DNA of 14,072 nt. It comes from an uncultured virus (IMG/VR IMGVR_UViG_3300012012_002042) (lineage: Duplodnaviria > Heunggongvirae > Uroviricota > Caudoviricetes). Shown piece after piece: positions 3,367 through 14,072 of the stretch (position 1 is the first letter of the stretch; the number at the start of each line of letters is the position of its first letter). The notes below the pieces were generated by a model. It saw only the letters and a list, made by a program, of their open reading frames with translations. It was not told the DNA's origin and made no database searches. Both the position numbers and the translations under genes were made by a program. Location: IMG/VR virus record IMGVR_UViG_3300012012_002042. One strand, 5' to 3'.

Positions 3367-3669
3367 ATGGTCATCCTAGATCCAGGAACCCCTAGAGACA
3401 TGCGGCTGCTCATGCTCTCTGCCGCCACCACTACCGGGGTCCGGGTAGAGGTGGTCTGTTCAACACATCAGCCCGAAGCGAAGACTGGGGTGACCATCAC
3501 TCGATCGGGCGGCATCTCTCCGGCAGACACTCTCCTGAGCATGGCAATTACGACGGCCTGTGAATACGGTAGGGACAATATCGATTTGAGGGATTTCAAG
3601 AAAAACTCAGAGCCGTTTTATGCCGGAGTATCCCAGCGTAAACGCGGACAAAAACAAAAACGTAAATGA
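3367..3669 (+). CDS. Hypothetical protein (100 aa, basic C-terminus)
   Basis: The stop forms an ATGA overlap with 3666. The start is uncertain (3367 or 3400). Confidence 0.6.
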   Translation: MVILDPGTPRDMRLLMLSAATTTGVRVEVVCSTHQPEAKTGVTITRSGGISPADTLLSMAITTACEYGRDNIDLRDFKKNSEPFYAGVSQRKRGQKQKRK

Positions 3670-4097
3670 TGACCGAAGACAAAGAAGCAGTGCATACAGC
3701 GGGGACAATTACCCTCACGGGTTACAGGTTGGAAGTGCGAGTGTTGATGCACCACCCAGCGCGAGTTTTGAAAATCGGCGAGGTCCTGGTGACGGAGAAA
3801 TGGCTGGAGGTTGGAAAAGCATGTGCCTTCAATTTCACCCTACCGGAAGAAGCATCTGATCTGCTGTTGCATCAGTATGGCTTGATGGGACTCGAATTGG
3901 CACAGTCCGTGAAATGGGAACTGCTGGCCAAACACAGCGCTGTGATCCCATATCTGCAATGCCGACTGGTCGGATACGAACTCGAAGTCCGCCACACCAT
4001 CCGACAAATGGGCGTCCTGAAGGGTTCACTCGTAGAGCGCGATCACGCGGAAACGCTGCAGTTTGAACGCGAGAAACCTGAAGACTCAGGGAAATGA
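3666..4097 (+). CDS. Hypothetical protein (143 aa)
   Basis: ATGA coupling to both neighbours. Lies directly upstream of the GHKL ATPase gene. Confidence 0.75.
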   Translation: MMTEDKEAVHTAGTITLTGYRLEVRVLMHHPARVLKIGEVLVTEKWLEVGKACAFNFTLPEEASDLLLHQYGLMGLELAQSVKWELLAKHSAVIPYLQCRLVGYELEVRHTIRQMGVLKGSLVERDHAETLQFEREKPEDSGK

Positions 4098-5818
4098 GCA
4101 CAGCAACAGTACGGGAATTCAAAACCCATCCGCGGGTAATTCTCACACTTATTCGGGAGCAGTCAGGCTCACTGTCAAAGGCTGTCGGAGAAGCCGTCAT
4201 GAACTCAGCCGACGCCGGCGCCACTTGGGTGTCGATTACGCTCAGTCCGCAGCAACTGATCATCGAGGACAACGGCAAGGGCATCAATGCCGAGGCGGAG
4301 ATCGAGGAATTCTTCAACACGTTCGGCACTCCCCATGCGCTGGACGAGAATGAGAATTCCACCGATGCCAAATACGGGAAGTTCCGAATCGGTCGCGGGC
4401 AACTGTTCAATTACGGCCACAACACCTGGTTGACTGGTCCATTCAAGATGGTCGTGGATTTGAATGCCATGATGGCGCGGGGAGACATGAAATGGGAGAC
4501 GCACAGGCTCCCGAAGGCTGTGGATGGCTGCACCATCAAGATCGAATTGTATGACCGCCTGTCCGCTGCGGAGATGATCAATATCACGGAGGAGATCACT
4601 CGCATGTGCAAATACATGGATATGGAAATCCGGCTGAATAATGAACTCGTGAATACTCCGCCTTCAACCGTGCGGTGGACTGAGGAGACCGAGGATGCCT
4701 ACATCAAGGTGAACGACAGTCACACACGCGGCGTGGAGTTCTACCAGCAGGGCATTTACGTGATGACGGTTCCCAGCTGGCAGGTGGGATCCTCGGGAAT
4801 AATCGTGACGAAGAAACCCGTGGCCCTGAACTTCGCCAGGAACGACGTCAAACGCACGGACAAATTATTCACCAGGGTCATCGCAAAGTTCAAAAAGGAC
4901 TCCGCCGTTCGGGCCCGCACCAAGCGTGATCTGACCCACGGCGAACGGAAGGCGCTGTTGAATCAACTGCTGTCCGAAGAGGAATCCTGGAGCCACAATC
5001 TGGCAGTCAAACTGTTCCCTGACACGAACGGGACATGTTGGTCGATCAATCAACTGCGCCGGCTGCCAGGCCAGGAAAAGATCATCACACAGCCCGACAC
5101 AACCATCGGGTATTGTTTCGCCGAGAAGGGTGATCGTCGTGGTGACGTCATCATGAAGATGGGTCTGGGAATTGTGTTCGATTTGGAATTGCTGGACATG
5201 ACCCGGCTGAAGGCTGAGACGTTCTTCGACAAAATCGATTATTCCCTGAAGGGCGCCTACTCCCATATCCCGATCCTCCAATTGGGAAAAGGTGCGGATA
5301 GCAAATTCCGGGTGATCGAAGAGAAGGATCAGACCTCACTGGAAACCGAAATTCTGCGCACGCTGGAGGATATCATGTGGTTTATTCTGCGCGCGAAGTC
5401 GGATATCGATGGTGACCACTTCTCTCACGAAGACCACAGAGTTTTGCGTGTCGGCATTTCGACGTGCGCTGAAGCGTGGACTGACGGTAAATCCTACGTA
5501 GCCTTCAGCCGCGACTTTCTGCAGAAGTGTGGACAAGGCTGGGGCTGGGTGGATTTGGCAAATCTGTTGCTCCACGAAATGTGTCATGCCGATGCCGACA
5601 CCGGCACGCACGTGCACGGGCCGGAGTTCCATCAATTGTATCACGATATTCAGGCGTTTCAGGCGCCGGCGTATGGGAAGGCGATTGGGAAGGCATACAT
5701 CAGATTCTCGCAGCGTCTGTCAGAACTGGCGGGAAAAGTGACGAAGAAGCAGCGCATGGAGGCCATCAAAAATAATACCCTGCAAGAAGACCTTGCGGCA
5801 GTCGGAGGAACCGAATGA
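4094..5818 (+). CDS. GHKL (Hsp90/MutL/HATPase_c-like) ATPase fused to a C-terminal HEXXH zincin-like metallopeptidase domain (574 aa)
   Basis: N-box EAVMNSADAG (E33, nt 4190), G1 IEDNGKGI, G2-like GKFRIGRG (G95), G3-like GCTIKI. C-terminal AWTDG (A461), LLHEMCH (H494-H498, nt 5573-5587) and HGPEF (H508). Confidence 0.9.
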   Translation: MSTATVREFKTHPRVILTLIREQSGSLSKAVGEAVMNSADAGATWVSITLSPQQLIIEDNGKGINAEAEIEEFFNTFGTPHALDENENSTDAKYGKFRIGRGQLFNYGHNTWLTGPFKMVVDLNAMMARGDMKWETHRLPKAVDGCTIKIELYDRLSAAEMINITEEITRMCKYMDMEIRLNNELVNTPPSTVRWTEETEDAYIKVNDSHTRGVEFYQQGIYVMTVPSWQVGSSGIIVTKKPVALNFARNDVKRTDKLFTRVIAKFKKDSAVRARTKRDLTHGERKALLNQLLSEEESWSHNLAVKLFPDTNGTCWSINQLRRLPGQEKIITQPDTTIGYCFAEKGDRRGDVIMKMGLGIVFDLELLDMTRLKAETFFDKIDYSLKGAYSHIPILQLGKGADSKFRVIEEKDQTSLETEILRTLEDIMWFILRAKSDIDGDHFSHEDHRVLRVGISTCAEAWTDGKSYVAFSRDFLQKCGQGWGWVDLANLLLHEMCHADADTGTHVHGPEFHQLYHDIQAFQAPAYGKAIGKAYIRFSQRLSELAGKVTKKQRMEAIKNNTLQEDLAAVGGTE

Positions 5819-6177
5819 ACAATATTCACAAATTGAAAACGAAGGAAGACTGGGAAAAGGCAGACCGCGAAACCCGATTCGAATACCGAGACCAGTTCAA
5901 GCGCGGGCAGGTTTACAAATGTTTGAAGCCTGTCCGCATCAGCGGCATGCGCTCTCTCGGCCCGAATGCGTGGCAGGGGTTCTCAGTGTTAATTCCTGAG
6001 GGGGACACCATTGTCTGCGCTGGGGAGTCCATGACTGCAGGAGACGGAGTGCCGGCCATTAAATGGAATGACGGGAACAACACGCCATTTGGTCGTGATG
6101 CCATCATGAGTGAAATTGTCGGCGGGATGTGGGGCGGTCAAGTCCCCGAGCCAGGATATTTGGAATTGGTGCCATGA
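5815..6177 (+). CDS. Hypothetical protein (120 aa)
   Basis: ATGA coupling to the ATPase stop and to the next gene. Gly-rich, beta-like C-terminal half. Confidence 0.75.
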   Translation: MNNIHKLKTKEDWEKADRETRFEYRDQFKRGQVYKCLKPVRISGMRSLGPNAWQGFSVLIPEGDTIVCAGESMTAGDGVPAIKWNDGNNTPFGRDAIMSEIVGGMWGGQVPEPGYLELVP

Positions 6178-8530: not shown

Positions 8531-8800
8531 ATGGAATACACACCACAGAATTATGACATCCCAATCTTCGAGGACGAATTCCCCGAGGCCGCGGCTGTCC
8601 TGTATCGGATCTACGAATGGAGCATCAGAGGACTGTTCGGCATCTTCGAACACAATGGTGGGTGGGAGTTTTACGCGCAACGAGCGGCCCTGCGAAACAT
8701 ACCTCGCGCCTCACAGCCGTGTGGTTGTGGTAGCGGGCGGAAATTCCTCCAGTGCTGCCGGGAATTCATCAACGATTGGGTGAACATGTGCCACGTCTGA
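8531..8800 (+). CDS. SEC-C (SecA C-terminal type) metal-binding motif protein (89 aa)
   Basis: ATG at 8531, with AGGA about 6 nt upstream. PCGCGSGRKFLQCC matches the SEC-C consensus CxCGSGxKxxxCC. Confidence 0.8.
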   Translation: MEYTPQNYDIPIFEDEFPEAAAVLYRIYEWSIRGLFGIFEHNGGWEFYAQRAALRNIPRASQPCGCGSGRKFLQCCREFINDWVNMCHV

Positions 8801-8801
8801 T

Positions 8802-9254
8802 ATGGGAGGATTCGCAGCTCTCCCAGATCACCAGACGATGGCCTGTCCATTCTGCGGTGATCGCACGAAATCCAAAGTGACGCAGACGAGATATTTGCAC
8901 AACGACACCATAATCCGGCGGCGTCGGGAATGTGCGAACGGACACCGCTACTCCACCTGTGAGCGCATAGCGGCTCCGGAAGATCGGGCAGAAATCTCCG
9001 GCGTGGTTTCGATCGCCCGAATAGCTACGGTGGTGTTCCCGTCTCTGTATCGGGATTTTCTGCTGACTCACTTTATTCCAAGACTGCGTGATTGCGGTCA
9101 CATGGGTAATGTGTTTGCTCGTGATGTGACGTTGGGTGCCGTGCTTGCGATGGGGCGGCAATTGTGGACTGAGGCGGAAGCGGAGCTGGCCATTGACTGG
9201 CTGCGGAAGCTCCTGGAAAAATGGACCACGGCGAACCAATTCGAATTCAATTAA
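8802..9254 (+). CDS. NrdR-like N-terminal Zn-ribbon protein with an unrelated C-terminus (150 aa; alternative start 8838)
   Basis: MACPFCG...SKVTQTR...IRRRRECANGHRYSTCE matches the NrdR Zn-ribbon signature (CPFC...RRRREC...RFTTxE). No ATP-cone is recognisable, so it is not called nrdR. Confidence 0.75.
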   Translation: MGGFAALPDHQTMACPFCGDRTKSKVTQTRYLHNDTIIRRRRECANGHRYSTCERIAAPEDRAEISGVVSIARIATVVFPSLYRDFLLTHFIPRLRDCGHMGNVFARDVTLGAVLAMGRQLWTEAEAELAIDWLRKLLEKWTTANQFEFN

Positions 9255-9731
9255 ATGGCAATACGCAAAATCAAATGTGATTCCGGCCTGACCGGCTGGA
9301 TGGACAAACTCCAGAATGTTTACAAGTCCTACGCAGAGTTCCAAGGGTATTGCGACAATTACAATATTCACGGACGGCTTGGATTTGACTGCGTAGGCGA
9401 TGCCTGGCTGTCGAACCCGTGGATCCAAGGTTCTGTGAGTCCATCTGATCTGCGCATCTGCAAACCCAGTGAGGTGCGTCGCAAGACCCGGCCAAAGACC
9501 AAGTGGTGGATTGTCACAGGACGCACTTGCGGGAGGGATGAAGACGTATTGGCAGTAGTCAGAGTGCGCGATGAAGAGGCCGCCACCGAGAAGTTTGCGA
9601 AAATGTTGACGGGAGCCGATTACCACAAGGATTGGCGTGATTGGGGCAGTATGAAGGAGCCCCCTCACCCGCCCATTTACATCAACTCCACAGTGGAGTG
9701 CGGAAAAACGAAACCAAAAATCTGGAGCTGA
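9255..9731 (+). CDS. Two-module hypothetical protein (158 aa)
   Basis: Abuts the previous stop. N-module GW...RLGF...AWxxNPxIQGS, a basic linker, then C-module WIVTGR...DED...A...F...IYIN. Confidence 0.8.
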   Translation: MAIRKIKCDSGLTGWMDKLQNVYKSYAEFQGYCDNYNIHGRLGFDCVGDAWLSNPWIQGSVSPSDLRICKPSEVRRKTRPKTKWWIVTGRTCGRDEDVLAVVRVRDEEAATEKFAKMLTGADYHKDWRDWGSMKEPPHPPIYINSTVECGKTKPKIWS

Positions 9732-9944
9732 ATGAAAATCATTTCCGAAATGGAGCGGCTGCTCCAATTGCTTGATAGTCCATTTAAGCATGAAGGCGAG
9801 ACCCAGGAACTGACAGACCTTTATGAGCGTCATGTTTCTTCGGAACGCATCGACGCACTGATCGGCGCGCTGAAGACGATGGAAGGTGCCAGTGGATTCT
9901 GGGTGGATTGCAAAACCGCCCTAGACAAACTCAACCAACAATAG
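9732..9944 (+). CDS. Small helical hypothetical protein (70 aa)
   Basis: The ATG directly abuts the previous TGA. Confidence 0.7.
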   Translation: MKIISEMERLLQLLDSPFKHEGETQELTDLYERHVSSERIDALIGALKTMEGASGFWVDCKTALDKLNQQ

Positions 9945-10609: not shown

Positions 10610-10943
10610 AGCCCGCGCATTCCTGGAAGCCCGTGGAGAAACCACAGACGACTGGGAAGGTACTTGCGGCGAACTGGCGAACGAGATTGTCAGGCCGGAT
10701 GATGACATCATCTACGTCGAGGGATGTGCCCGCTGGCGCTTTCACATGGTGCCTCTCATCGACGGATTGATTCATGATGCCTGGTGTGAGGGCCCGCCGC
10801 TCCCGATCGCGGAGTGGTTGGCAAAAATGTTTTGGGGAGAGGAAATTGAATTATCACTGAACGGAGAAACGATTTACACGGGAACAGCACATGAATATTC
10901 AAGCAGGAATGCGCTGCGTGAGACGCAGCCACTGATGCAATGA
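10596..10943 (+). CDS. Hypothetical protein, candidate papain/transglutaminase-fold Cys-His-Asp enzyme (115 aa)
   Basis: AGGA lies 9 nt upstream of the ATG at 10596. GTCGELA (C24), WRFHMVP (H50), GLIHDAW (D61). Confidence 0.6.
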   Translation: MLEHKARAFLEARGETTDDWEGTCGELANEIVRPDDDIIYVEGCARWRFHMVPLIDGLIHDAWCEGPPLPIAEWLAKMFWGEEIELSLNGETIYTGTAHEYSSRNALRETQPLMQ

Positions 10944-11245
10944 GCCAGAACTTACCGATCGAAATGATTGAGGCGGAACGGAGCCGGCAGATCGAGGTCA
11001 AAGGTTGGACCCTGGAGCACGATGACGGACACACGGATCACCAGCTCGCCATGTATGCCGGCCTGCTAGCGATTCCTGCGAGTCATCGTAGTCTTGCACT
11101 CCGGAGACTGCTGTTCCCGACGTCGGCGTGGCTTGCAGGGGCAATCAAGGACCCAAGCGATGAGGATGAACGTCTGCAGGAACTGGCAAAAGCCGGCGCT
11201 TTGATTGTGGCTGAGATGGAGAGGATTCAAAGATCTAAACGATGA
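10940..11245 (+). CDS. Phage ERxRQ...HDD...KAGALIxAExER family protein (101 aa)
   Basis: IEAERSRQIEVKGWTLEHDD...LAKAGALIVAEMERI is a recurrent all-helical phage family of uncertain function. Confidence 0.8.
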   Translation: MSQNLPIEMIEAERSRQIEVKGWTLEHDDGHTDHQLAMYAGLLAIPASHRSLALRRLLFPTSAWLAGAIKDPSDEDERLQELAKAGALIVAEMERIQRSKR

Positions 11246-12109: not shown

Positions 12110-13021
12110 ATGACCAATAATAAAACAGTGATTCAAGTGGTGGCCGGAGAGTTTATCCCGGATCCCGAAGAACCAGGAGAGATGATGCAGATGAACACGC
12201 AGGTGTCCTGCCTGGATTGTGTCACAGTCATGATCCACGCCCCTGTGGAATACCGGATTCACGTGCTGCTCCGTGCAGTTTATGCCGCCATGACCGGATT
12301 AGGATATGCGCCTGAAACCCTGGCAAAATTCATGAAATCCCCGGAGGAACTCTGGAAGATGCAGGACGCAGACGACGCAGACNNNNNNNNNNNNNNNNNN
12401 NCCGCAGTCGACGCCGTAGCAGCAATGGCTGCTGATATGAAAGCCGCTGTCGAAAAGGACAATCCGCCCCCGGATCTGTTTGAGATTATTCTGAAGAAGG
12501 GTCAGGAATTGGCTGGCGGTGCGGATAAACTGACGGCGAAGGAATTCTCCAATTGGGTTCGCATAGCAACTCCAGACCCCGACAAGCCGAATGTCAGAAC
12601 TTTACAGTTCAAACATGCCGCCAATCGTCCTGCGTGGGCAATCAAAATGGCAGAGTTGTCCACTAGCGGAATGTTGGTTATGGAGGGCTCAGGTCATCAG
12701 GTCGTTCCGCTGCCCGCGGGCATAGACTGTAATGCTCCAATGTCGACTTTGCGGTTGCCGAAAGGTTCGAATGCTGAAATGACAGCGGCTGAGCTGATGA
12801 AGAACGCCTTTCATACGTTGCGGTTGAAGTTTCCCATCTCCCGAGAGTTGTTCGACACGCATGTCAAATGTGAAGTTGGGCAGAATGGGAAAGGGGAAAA
12901 GAAAATGCTTATTTTCACCTTTCCGAAAACCGACAATCCGCCGCCTTGGTTGGGCCTTGCGATAGATGCATTCATTCAGACCAATAAGGAAATGGAAAAA
13001 CTATACGGGTTCGAACCATGA
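12110..13021 (+). CDS. Hypothetical protein (~303 aa, spans an assembly gap)
   Basis: Open on both sides of the N-run. The stop is coupled by ATGA to the methyltransferase. Continuity across the gap is unproven. Confidence 0.65.
   Translation: MTNNKTVIQVVAGEFIPDPEEPGEMMQMNTQVSCLDCVTVMIHAPVEYRIHVLLRAVYAAMTGLGYAPETLAKFMKSPEELWKMQDADDADXXXXXXXAVDAVAAMAADMKAAVEKDNPPPDLFEIILKKGQELAGGADKLTAKEFSNWVRIATPDPDKPNVRTLQFKHAANRPAWAIKMAELSTSGMLVMEGSGHQVVPLPAGIDCNAPMSTLRLPKGSNAEMTAAELMKNAFHTLRLKFPISRELFDTHVKCEVGQNGKGEKKMLIFTFPKTDNPPPWLGLAIDAFIQTNKEMEKLYGFEP
12383..12401. other. Assembly/scaffold gap (19 N)
   Basis: Run of N flanked by low-complexity GACGCAGACGACGCAGAC and CCGCAGTCGACGCC. Confidence 0.99.
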
Positions 13022-14072
13022 AGCATCCGAATAATTTCAGGAAGACTCCCTACGACGGACTGATTATCGACAACTTCGCCGGCGGCGGCGGAACCTCGAC
13101 GGGAATTTACATGGCGCTCGGACGGCATGTGGACTTCGCCATCAACCACGATGAGCACGCCCTGATCATGCACAAGGCGAACCACCCGGAGACGCATCAC
13201 ATCTGCGAGGACGTGTTCGACGTGAACCCGGTGGAATTGTGCCAGGGACAACAGGTGGATCTCGCCACCTTCTCGCCTGATTGCACTCACTTCTCAAAAG
13301 CACGAGGAGGGAAGCCTGTGGAAAAGCGAATCCGCGGTCTCTCTTGGGTTGTTGTGAAATGGGCAGCCACCGTAAGGCCTCGTGTGATGATCATGGAGAA
13401 CGTGGAGGAGATCACTACCTGGGGGCCGTTGAAAAACGGACAGCCGGATCCAAAACATGAAGGGCGCACATGGAAAGCCTTTATTGCCTGCCTCACCACA
13501 GGTCTGCCTGCGAACCACCCGGACATGCCGGAGGTAAGAAAAGCGATCGGTCTTGGCATCCCTTTATCCCGACTCACGCAGGGTCTGGGATATAATGTGG
13601 AGCACAGGGAATTGATCGCCTACGAATATGGCGCACCGACCACCCGTAAACGATTGAAGCTGATTGCCCGAGCTGACGGGAATCCAATCGTCTGGCCCGA
13701 GCCCACGCACGGGAAGCCCGATGCTCCGATGGTGAAGGCTGGATTGAAGAAATTATGGCGAATGGCCTGGGAGTGCATCGACTTCTCAATTCCGATTCCG
13801 TCGATATTCACGCGCGGAAAACGTCTCGCCGACAATTCTCTCAAACGGATTGCACGCGGGCTGTGGAAATTCGTGCTCGCCTGTGCAAAACCGTTTATCG
13901 TGCCGGAGTCCAATATCTCTCCGATGATCCAGCACATCCAGCACGGCTCGGCCGTCACAGGATGCATGCCGCCAGATGGACCGCTGAATACCATCACAGC
14001 ACATCCCAAGGGTGGAGGTATGGCGGTCACCGCGGCGCATCTGCTGAAGATTCGCAGCGGGAGCATTGGCAC
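13018..14072 (+). CDS. DNA (cytosine-5)-methyltransferase, phage/mobile-element type (partial, runs off window)
   Basis: Manual translation from ATG 13018 has no stop before the window end. Motif I DNFAGGGG, AINHD, motif IV FSPDCTHFS, motif VI MENVEE, motif VIII YGAPTTRKRL, then WPEPTH and PLNTITA. It is missing from the ORF track because it has no stop. Confidence 0.95.
   Translation, partial: MKHPNNFRKTPYDGLIIDNFAGGGGTSTGIYMALGRHVDFAINHDEHALIMHKANHPETHHICEDVFDVNPVELCQGQQVDLATFSPDCTHFSKARGGKPVEKRIRGLSWVVVKWAATVRPRVMIMENVEEITTWGPLKNGQPDPKHEGRTWKAFIACLTTGLPANHPDMPEVRKAIGLGIPLSRLTQGLGYNVEHRELIAYEYGAPTTRKRLKLIARADGNPIVWPEPTHGKPDAPMVKAGLKKLWRMAWECIDFSIPIPSIFTRGKRLADNSLKRIARGLWKFVLACAKPFIVPESNISPMIQHIQHGSAVTGCMPPDGPLNTITAHPKGGGMAVTAAHLLKIRSGSIG

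Follow-up and report, generated by a model that had tools for sequence, protein, structure and literature searches.

The stretch of DNA analyzed here (hereafter the window; 14,072 nucleotides) comes from an uncultured virus assigned to the Caudoviricetes (IMG/VR record IMGVR_UViG_3300012012_002042) and is one co-directional array of short plus-strand open reading frames (ORFs), in which stop and start codons often overlap. The gene of interest (4094..5818, plus strand) starts with ATG and encodes 574 amino acids followed by a stop. As the initial annotation of this sequence had noted, it is the largest complete gene in the window, being the longest complete ORF among the 119 ORFs of at least 50 amino acids; in next place come ORFs of 354 amino acids (on the minus strand and probably a shadow ORF), 351 (with its 3' end open), and 310. 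Its product carries a GHKL-type ATPase domain and a zincin-type metallopeptidase domain in a single ORF. This fusion had been proposed in the initial annotation and is supported by an above-cut-off Pfam match (HATPase_c_3) at one end and a conserved HExxH-x9-H motif at the other. We refer to the gene as the GHL-zincin gene, after the gyrase-Hsp90-MutL (GHL) subclass of ATPases. The architecture is a new variant of the pattern in which a GHL ATPase is fused to an effector. The GHL-zincin gene is flanked by two translationally coupled plus-strand ORFs that have no family assignment, namely one of 143 amino acids upstream (3666..4097) and one of 120 amino acids downstream (5815..6177). Its ATG overlaps the stop codon of the former (ATGA), and its own stop codon overlaps the ATG of the latter (ATGA), which is preceded by GGAGGA.

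The GHKL (Bergerat) ATP-binding domain spans approximately residues 3-182 (4100..4639, plus strand), as delimited by Pfam, hhalign, and invariant alignment columns. HATPase_c_3 matches residues 27-97 with 36.1 bits (cut-off 25) and is matched by all 50 members of the family alignment. The sequence motifs listed in the initial annotation all lie where it placed them in the translation, with EAVMNSADA at residue 33, DNGKG at 59, GRGQ at 100, and GCT at 145. These correspond to motif I (E33xxxN37xxD40), motif II (D59xG61xG63), a lid-like box (G100-R-G-Q103), and a following G145-C146 pair, and an N-terminal strap is formed by residues 2-12. Among the 50 aligned members, E33, N37, D59, G61, G63, and G100-Q103 are invariant and D40 is kept in at least 90%. 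The GxT motif read at residue 145 is present, but only G145 and C146 are conserved in this alignment and T147 varies. In the larger set of 232 retrieved homologs, DxGxG and GRGQ are found in all and ExxxNxxD in 230. The motifs and the profile match both place the protein in the GHKL (Bergerat-fold) ATPase superfamily.

Within this superfamily, the sequence affinities of the domain are distant. The ATP-binding motif region is closest to MutL and PMS2 by sequence profile (E 1e-4), with TRAP1 at about E 0.1. Alignment of the family profile with a single sequence, E. coli HtpG, by hhalign placed residues 3-182 onto 3-211 (N-domain only) with 58.7% probability. All NCBIfam matches are far below threshold (BbrUII, 22.4 vs. 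550; MutL, 20.2 vs. 180; sacsin domain, 15.1 vs. 50). The sole PADLOC match of the protein is a model of a GHKL-containing restriction enzyme (E 0.016). The sole PHROG match is phrog_6203, a family annotated as function unknown (residues 12-78), so the kinship with phage T4 RIIA mentioned in the initial annotation was not seen. A phmmer search against PDB sequences returned chance-level matches only.

The minimal zincin domain (residues 405-523; 5306..5662, plus strand) was delimited from Pfam, profile, and fold matches. Its elements are a W462-T-D-G465 strand, an H494-E-x-x-H498 helix, the third ligand H508, and then F512 and H517. In the translation, AWTDG starts at residue 461, HEMCH at 494, and HGPEF at 508, so that exactly nine residues separate H498 and H508. 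The Pfam SprT-like model matches residues 485-522 with 23.3 bits in the whole protein, under its cut-off of 25.6, and reaches 27.1 bits on the C-terminal 170 residues alone, covering only positions 57-98 of the 108 in the profile. A domain profile compared with PDB sequences has Wss1 (E 0.18) and Spartan (E 0.35) as top matches, both aligned on HExxH...H.xEF. These comparisons agree with the earlier placement of the zincin nearest to the SprT/WLM group, although the likeness to DUF2201 peptidases suggested along with it has no counterpart among Pfam matches at E<=0.1. Judged from such matches, the domain appears to be a divergent minimal zincin that stands beside SprT and WLM and is a member of neither.

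Conservation of the putative metal site is strong. The initial annotation had made its protease assignment depend on H494, E495, H498, and H508, and these four residues are invariant in 26 of 26 C-terminal domains compared. In the 50-member alignment, W462, T463, and G465 are invariant, and H494, E495, H498, H508, F512, and H517 are each kept in at least 90%. A WTDG-like motif occurs in 230 of the 232 homologs and HExxH in 225; the full pattern HExxH-x(5-20)-H..EF is found in 202, with the spacing being exactly 9 in 171 of those. The four residues are also intact in 33 of the 39 copies encoded at the loci analyzed, and the other six comprise two ORFs that lack the C-terminal part and four that are degenerate or misaligned. 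With the catalytic motifs kept in most of the 232 homologs and of the 39 locus-encoded copies, both active sites are under selection.

Beyond the zincin domain is a C-terminal helical tail (residues 524-574; 5663..5815, plus strand) with a net charge of +4 and model helices at 524-545 and 551-573. Of 226 homologs, 80% have a tail with net positive charge (median +4) and a few have lysine-rich runs, and the zincin core averages -4.8. Such a tail is compatible with nucleic-acid binding but no proof of it. Some homologs (P0045, P0053, and P0109; columns ~830-925 of alignment A1) have an additional C-terminal extension of about 80 residues past the basic tail, which is conserved and has a common VLANP-x-H motif.

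The region between the two catalytic domains was characterized with an AlphaFold2 model built from the 50-sequence alignment (mean pLDDT 90.2, pTM 0.75). An S5-like transducer domain at approximately residues 183-280 (4640..4933, plus strand) was assigned from structure matches and a conserved loop, and a second middle lobe at approximately 281-400 (4934..5293, plus strand) from a structural match to TRAP1 (4z1i_C). The top Foldseek matches of the model are full-length Hsp90s (HtpG, Hsc82, and TRAP1; E ~1e-17), and matches in the Atlas include HtpG clusters with TM 0.54-0.56. In VIA-align comparisons, TRAP1 (4z1i_C) covered residues 10-396 of the model (Z 18.9, rmsd 6.7 A, 353 aligned), whereas MORC3 (Z 17.0, rmsd 4.1, 256 aligned) and MutL (Z 16.4) both aligned within residues 10-279/281. 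Since TRAP1 covers residues 10-396 and MORC3 and MutL cover only 10-280, the modeled clamp appears to consist of the GHKL domain and transducer found throughout GHL proteins plus a second lobe restricted to Hsp90; the second lobe has structural matches only to middle domains of the Hsp90 family.

The conserved transducer loop is L245-N-F-A-R249-N250, in which N246, R249, and N250 are kept in 50 of 50 members; the N-x-x-R-N pattern is found in 208 of the 232 homologs. LNFARN aligns with LNVSRE of E. coli HtpG (R336) in a single-comparison BLASTP (E 0.18), and the score of this local alignment was reached by 3 of 1000 shuffled sequences. The middle domain of Hsp90 supplies an arginine making contact with the gamma-phosphate (10.64898/2026.09.30.754977). 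By analogy, R249 is likely the gamma-phosphate sensor. In the model, the transducer follows the GHKL domain and carries R249 as its basic residue, which places the protein, as modeled, in the GHL subclass. It does not belong to the Hsp90 family proper, as the Pfam HSP90 model (PF00183) has no match at E<=0.1 and the C-terminal part is a zincin.

The initial annotation had proposed modeling a dimer with ATP. With two copies of residues 1-400 and ATP, an N-terminal, strap-swapped dimer was predicted with a score of 0.80; three controls were run alongside, and the best of them scored 0.00. Among proteins of solved structure, the mark used was attained by 20 of 30 that form pairs of one chain and by 1 of 23 solved as single chains, counts that apply only roughly here because the prediction used our own alignment and included ATP. 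Between runs, at least 79% of contacts coincide, and the partner pLDDT is at least 84. The predicted interface packs residues 2-12 of each copy against residues 75-80 and 131-138 of its partner, with loop 246-254 located there as well. This interface may represent the strap-exchange closure of GHL ATPases. Given that GHL dimers have already been solved and that our own alignment and a ligand were used, the prediction may reflect such likeness and is not proof of a dimer.

The protein is a member of a large, widespread, and unnamed family of phage, plasmid, and integrative-element proteins. A word-indexed search found 611 proteins at E<=0.001 among 7997 scored candidates, of which the closest is 95% identical and all others are at most 54% identical. 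An exhaustive search of representatives of 50%-identity clusters found 1380 at E<=0.001 and 859 at E<=1e-30. The 232 homologs retrieved have 534-687 residues (median 579), and where names are given, they are "hypothetical protein" or "ATP-binding protein." In line with the earlier statement that no characterized member was known, none turned up in searches of proteins, NCBIfam, PADLOC, and the literature, and the literature search did not yield any description of a GHKL ATPase joined to an active SprT/WLM-type zincin. For the element represented by the window itself, the collections searched contain no close relative. A megablast comparison of the complete window with phage records gave no match, nor did a metagenome scan with the single GHL-zincin protein as the query. 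A second metagenome scan, with alignment A4 as the query, found 48 loci, none above 43% identity.

For cellular genomes, a search limited to one genome per species found 38 loci in Pseudomonadota, Armatimonadota, Nitrospirota, Verrucomicrobiota, Planctomycetota, Saccharibacteria, Chloroflexota, Actinomycetota, and two archaeal bins. For plasmids, 198 PLSDB records were matched, with coverage of at least 80% in 64. These are mostly from Acinetobacter (89), Pseudomonas (50), and Xanthomonas (22), and include 91 conjugative, 41 mobilizable, and 66 non-mobilizable plasmids. Megaplasmids of Pseudomonas, Xanthomonas, Aeromonas, and Acinetobacter carry family members. For viruses, 34 loci on IMG/VR contigs have family members, and one syntenic group among them belongs to genuine phages. 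When proteins of the viral loci were clustered by blastp, a cluster with two ORFs that PHROG assigns to the large terminase spans 18 loci, and 13 loci share a cluster of NAD-dependent ligases; genes close to the viral homologs also include those for an exonuclease, a dNMP kinase-like protein, and a deoxyribonucleotidase. Several replicons have two diverged copies of the family, including one contig with both L004 and L029 and the plasmid matches H4-H7 and H18-H20.

In annotated plasmids, the homolog is located within co-directional runs of small hypothetical genes. Its neighbors in a Photobacterium plasmid include ssb, topoisomerase III, thermonuclease, an LPD7 protein, StbB, and VirB5, and those in a Xanthomonas plasmid include ParB-N, a phosphoadenosine-phosphosulfate (PAPS) reductase family protein, and DinG. 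T4SS genes are also among the plasmid neighbors. Aeromonas and P. aeruginosa plasmids have PAPS-reductase family proteins, a cytosine methyltransferase, DndB, DUF262, and DUF4942 near the homolog. The PAPS-reductase family proteins (293-874 amino acids) occur within 5 kb of the homolog in three unrelated megaplasmids (L041:4002-4880, L125:13899-16523, and L126:14804-16684); none was found among 256 neighbor ORFs scanned at genome loci. That scan covered 35 genome loci with four ORFs per side and one very long ORF excluded. Most of the 256 ORFs have no Pfam match, and the remainder mainly have mobile-element and DNA functions, with HerA/DUF87-type ATPases in six loci, topoisomerase in two, DNA methyltransferases in three, integrases in three, and transposases in five. 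One of the HerA/DUF87-type neighbors is a TraD-like coupling protein that adjoins DUF4400 and RAQPRD, an arrangement of the integrative and conjugative element type. RecJ, NurA, UvrD, RadC, SSB, HNH, Mrr, and DUF1173 were also found among the neighbors. The association with MoxR/vWA systems raised by the initial annotation was not found, as neither the window nor the 256 neighbor ORFs contain such a gene.

No neighbor family is common to unrelated genome loci, with a maximum of 5 of 42 sources in the clustering, and the larger common neighbor clusters all come from one syntenic phage group. For this reason, the family member is regarded as a stand-alone gene module that has no conserved partner. 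Immediate neighbors are co-oriented with the homolog in 203 of 268 cases. When 123 loci were searched by tblastn with 27 proteins of the window, neither flanking ORF had a relative. The idea of a conserved downstream partner was rejected, as the four small ORFs located directly after the gene in the window and in three plasmids are 14-21% identical to one another and have only the initial Met in common.

Several homologs have a further peptidase gene nearby. The Acinetobacter family member (L127:3998-6109), which has 704 amino acids and is annotated as a mismatch-repair ATPase, carries WTN...HEYAH...H.FEF, and a separate Peptidase_M48 gene (L127:3042-3833, E 1.4e-29) lies just upstream. A stand-alone SprT-like gene (L037:13234-13671, 45.4 bits) lies 1.6 kb downstream of a distant archaeal homolog (Nanosalina), whose C-terminal motif itself fails to align. 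Another stand-alone SprT-like gene, with a weaker match (L018:7004-7993, 22.6 bits), is found two genes upstream of the family member in L018.

The reading that we favor, with confidence approaching but not reaching an even chance, is that the family members are ATP-gated dimeric clamp-proteases used by mobile elements on host proteins engaged with their DNA. The protein would be a homodimeric GHL clamp with an active SprT/Wss1-like zinc protease in the place of the C-terminal domain of Hsp90. Binding of ATP (through E33, N37, D59, G61, and G63) would close the N-terminal gate by strap exchange, with R249 of the transducer loop sensing the gamma-phosphate. With the gate closed, a captured substrate would be held beside both zincin sites (H494, E495, H498, and H508), which would place cleavage under the control of the ATPase cycle. 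The role would be that of an establishment or counter-defense factor of mobile elements, and the targets would be host proteins on, or crosslinked to, element DNA, such as restriction or other defense complexes and roadblocks, which would be removed or inactivated. The starting points are computed features, namely the two domains, the conservation of catalytic residues, the Hsp90-like domain order, and the spread through phages, plasmids, and integrative elements. From these we infer the coupling of gate closure to cleavage, the dependence on DNA, and the direction of the conflict.

MutL, MORC, and paraMORC proteins similarly combine a GHKL domain with an S5-like transducer and, in conflict systems, a clamp ATPase with a C-terminal effector (PMC2292703). 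The GHL-zincin protein differs from these in that the effector is a predicted peptidase instead of a nuclease or TIR domain and that no helicase or restriction operon is linked to it. GHL modules are typically fused to nucleases, and the passages covered of the paraMORC survey do not mention a peptidase, protease, or zincin (PMC2292703). Similarly, GHKL and SprT are not mentioned in the polyvalent-protein survey, nor are SprT, ArdC, and HATPase in the main text of the leading-region paper. The zincin resembles SprT/Spartan, Wss1 (WLM), and minimal zincins in having HExxH, a downstream His, and then xEF, as well as in the fold matches. However, it is fused to an ATPase clamp and not to ubiquitin- or PCNA-binding modules, and no zinc-binding DNA subdomain of the Spartan type was detected in the protein.

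ArdC, an anti-restriction protein of conjugative plasmids, provides a precedent for the proposed role (PMC7213743). It likewise joins a DNA-directed module to a zincin metalloprotease on mobile elements, with genes for transfer or establishment close by. The analogy extends to function only; the targeting module of the GHL-zincin protein is an ATPase clamp, and the ArdC-N and MPTase Pfam models have no match at E<=0.1, which places the protein outside the ArdC family. Another precedent is the ClpXP proteolysis of DNA-bound EcoKI in restriction alleviation (PMC11109961). Proteins of the phage T4 RIIA type are also phage-encoded and have an N-terminal GHKL domain with a variable C-terminal part (PMC7824862), but no membrane partner of the RIIB kind adjoins the GHL-zincin gene.

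Several observations weigh against the proposed clamp-protease role. The affinity to Hsp90 comes mainly from structure, since sequence puts motifs I-II nearest to MutL. Few family members match the Pfam models: SprT-like matches 1 of the 50 full-length proteins and 4 of the 26 domains taken alone, and WLM 3 of 50 and 3 of 26, respectively. The zincin fold scores are modest (Z 7-8.4), and because Foldseek found no match for the isolated C-terminal domain at E<=0.001, the fold evidence is moderate. DNA binding is only suggested, by the positive tail and by the neighboring genes. The genomic context leaves the direction of the conflict unsettled because mobile elements carry defense genes too, and four of the 50 members weakly match the ATPase model of Tiamat, a defense system. 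Finally, no experiment on any member of the family was found.

An alternative that we consider unlikely, though worth serious attention, is that the protein is an Hsp90-like chaperone-protease that cleaves soluble, partly folded clients, either for host takeover or for processing proteins of the element itself; in a variant, it would mimic HtpG to capture HtpG clients. As modeled, the protein resembles HtpG, TRAP1, and Hsc82 in a GHKL N-domain followed by a two-lobed middle domain, in the predicted closure by a strap-swapped N-terminal dimer, and in the LNFARN loop that aligns with LNVSRE of HtpG, and full-length Hsp90/HtpG/TRAP1 structures are the top matches over the N-terminal and middle domains, along with the HtpG clusters in the Atlas (TM 0.54-0.56). 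The acidic zincin core (average -4.8) also fits. However, PF00183 has no match at E<=0.1, and sequence profiles favor MutL in the ATP-binding motifs. The family also differs from Hsp90 in that a zincin occupies the position at which Hsp90 has its C-terminal dimerization domain and that the gene belongs to mobile elements, whereas Hsp90 is a housekeeping chaperone. The neighbors of the family are overwhelmingly DNA-metabolism genes, and DNA-protein crosslinks are the substrates of Wss1 and Spartan, the proteases to which it is most closely related. These points argue against soluble clients.

A second alternative, which we regard as improbable, is that the family acts as a defense or exclusion effector, as a short and catalytically active cousin of Tiamat-like GHL defense proteins. 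Such a protein would detect an invader and then cut a protein of the host or of the invader, leading to abortive infection or to exclusion of a competitor. Tiamat is the nearest described system. Its protein TmtA has an Hsp90-like ATPase and its transducer arginine, TPR-like folds, a Wss1-like fold without HExxH, and a PD-(D/E)xK nuclease, and sequences of fewer than 900 residues were excluded in the study that described it (10.64898/2026.09.30.754977). The pairing of an Hsp90-like ATPase and a transducer arginine with a Wss1-like fold further along is common to both and favors this alternative, as do the weak matches of PADLOC TmtA models to the ATPase region in 4 of 50 members (best E 3.2e-4), the presence of HipA, Mrr, HNH, RES, or restriction genes in some neighborhoods, and the two diverged copies on several replicons. 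On the other hand, Tiamat proteins have at least 900 residues, compared with 534-687 in the family examined here, which is free of the nuclease and keeps HExxH intact (225 of 232 homologs), the motif that the Tiamat fold lacks (10.64898/2026.09.30.754977). The GHL-zincin protein itself is matched by none of the TmtA models, and its only PADLOC match is the weak one to a GHKL-containing restriction enzyme (E 0.016). It also has no DUF3684, TPR core, or nuclease match in Pfam, and thus does not belong to Tiamat. Finally, the family is found in phage replication modules and plasmid establishment regions and not in typical defense islands.

The identity of the C-terminal domain as a protease is the point at issue in a third alternative, to which we assign a low probability. 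It holds that the domain is a metal-dependent nuclease or other hydrolase of zincin fold (YbeY-like), or mainly a dimerization module that replaces the C-terminal domain of Hsp90. A model of residues 405-574 alone (26 sequences, pLDDT 87.1) was compared with known structures by VIA-align, giving selecase (Z 8.4), YbeY-like AQ_1354 (7.5), abylysin (7.3), Wss1 (7.0), and Spartan (7.0; 20% identity). In total, 35 chains have Z>=5, mostly zincin peptidases, together with YbeY-type RNases and a few unrelated folds. Chains of the YbeY family thus score near the peptidases (1oz9, Z 7.5; 1xm5, Z 6.0; 7y7o, Z 5.9), Hsp90 C-terminal domains reach Z 4.7-5.0, and a nuclease is the usual partner of a GHL module (PMC2292703). 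Sequence points in the other direction, as the profile matches are to Wss1 and Spartan and not to YbeY, and the Glu of HExxH is invariant in the 26 isolated domains and kept in at least 90% of the 50 members. This Glu is the general base of zincin peptidases, and the YbeY motif is not known to contain it. The least probable alternative, which we consider very doubtful, is a regulatory protease of the element that cleaves a repressor to switch its life cycle in the manner of ImmA/IrrE; although it too would be a zincin protease on mobile elements and PprI/IrrE occurs far down the Foldseek list (8slm, rank 43, probability 0.06), there is no conserved adjacent HTH repressor, Peptidase_M78 has no match at E<=0.1, and the ATPase clamp has no counterpart in the ImmA/IrrE system.

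To our knowledge, every well-studied ATP-dependent protease of a bacterium or phage relies on an AAA+ unfoldase. A broader and more speculative extension of the clamp-protease reading, for which we see a rather small chance, is that the family represents an unrecognized kind of ATP-dependent protease built on the Hsp90 plan instead of AAA+, which traps and cuts host proteins engaging incoming DNA. It is equally conjectural that the targets would include restriction, SMC-type, and other defense complexes or HtpG clients, and that the zincin would be an active relative of the dead protease-like fold of Tiamat- and sacsin-like proteins. If true, proteolysis would be gated by ATP in a different manner, through a GHL clamp coupled to a zincin. 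If the family aids establishment in new hosts, it also bears on how plasmids and phages pass host barriers. The 574-residue protein may further provide a short and tractable model for the role of the Wss1-like fold in the larger proteins of the Tiamat, NO VEIN, and sacsin lineage. Both catalytic sites are clearly kept and the family is abundant on phages and plasmids, yet no study of it was found, which makes it of particular interest.

Elsewhere in the window, a C5 cytosine methyltransferase gene (13018-14070, plus strand; open at the 3' end) is located 7.2 kb and about 17 ORFs downstream of the GHL-zincin gene (PF00145, E 1.2e-16; phrog_116, E 1.2e-67). The initial annotation had correctly recognized this gene in the array and had linked it to the GHL-zincin gene as a source of covalent DNA adducts. 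The functional link was not supported, because the linkage is weak, with methyltransferases found within four ORFs of a homolog in 3 of the 35 genome loci and relatives of the window's C5 methyltransferase in 5 of 123 loci. The window enzyme is 51% identical to one located 3.5 kb upstream of another family member (L029), and orphan methyltransferases near homologs were also observed in L017 and on plasmid pAC1520.

The GC content of the window ranges from 0.49 to 0.57, with no break at the GHL-zincin gene. Scans of the window for tRNA and Rfam families found nothing above chance, and promoter-like and terminator-like sites showed no excess over chance. A protein of 150 amino acids (8802-9254, plus strand) has an N-terminal zinc ribbon of the NrdR type (PF22811, E 1.7e-10). 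Because its score against the NrdR equivalog (26.7 bits) is far below the cut-off of 124.65 bits, it is presumably a zinc-ribbon protein of a non-NrdR kind. The minus-strand ORF of 354 amino acids mentioned above (8769-9833) overlaps this gene. Finally, an ORF of 101 amino acids (10940-11245, plus strand) has matches to nine PHROG families of very different lengths (186-685 positions; best E 1.4e-14) that are confined to their C-terminal 80-90 residues, and looks like a shuffled C-terminal module that stands alone in the window.

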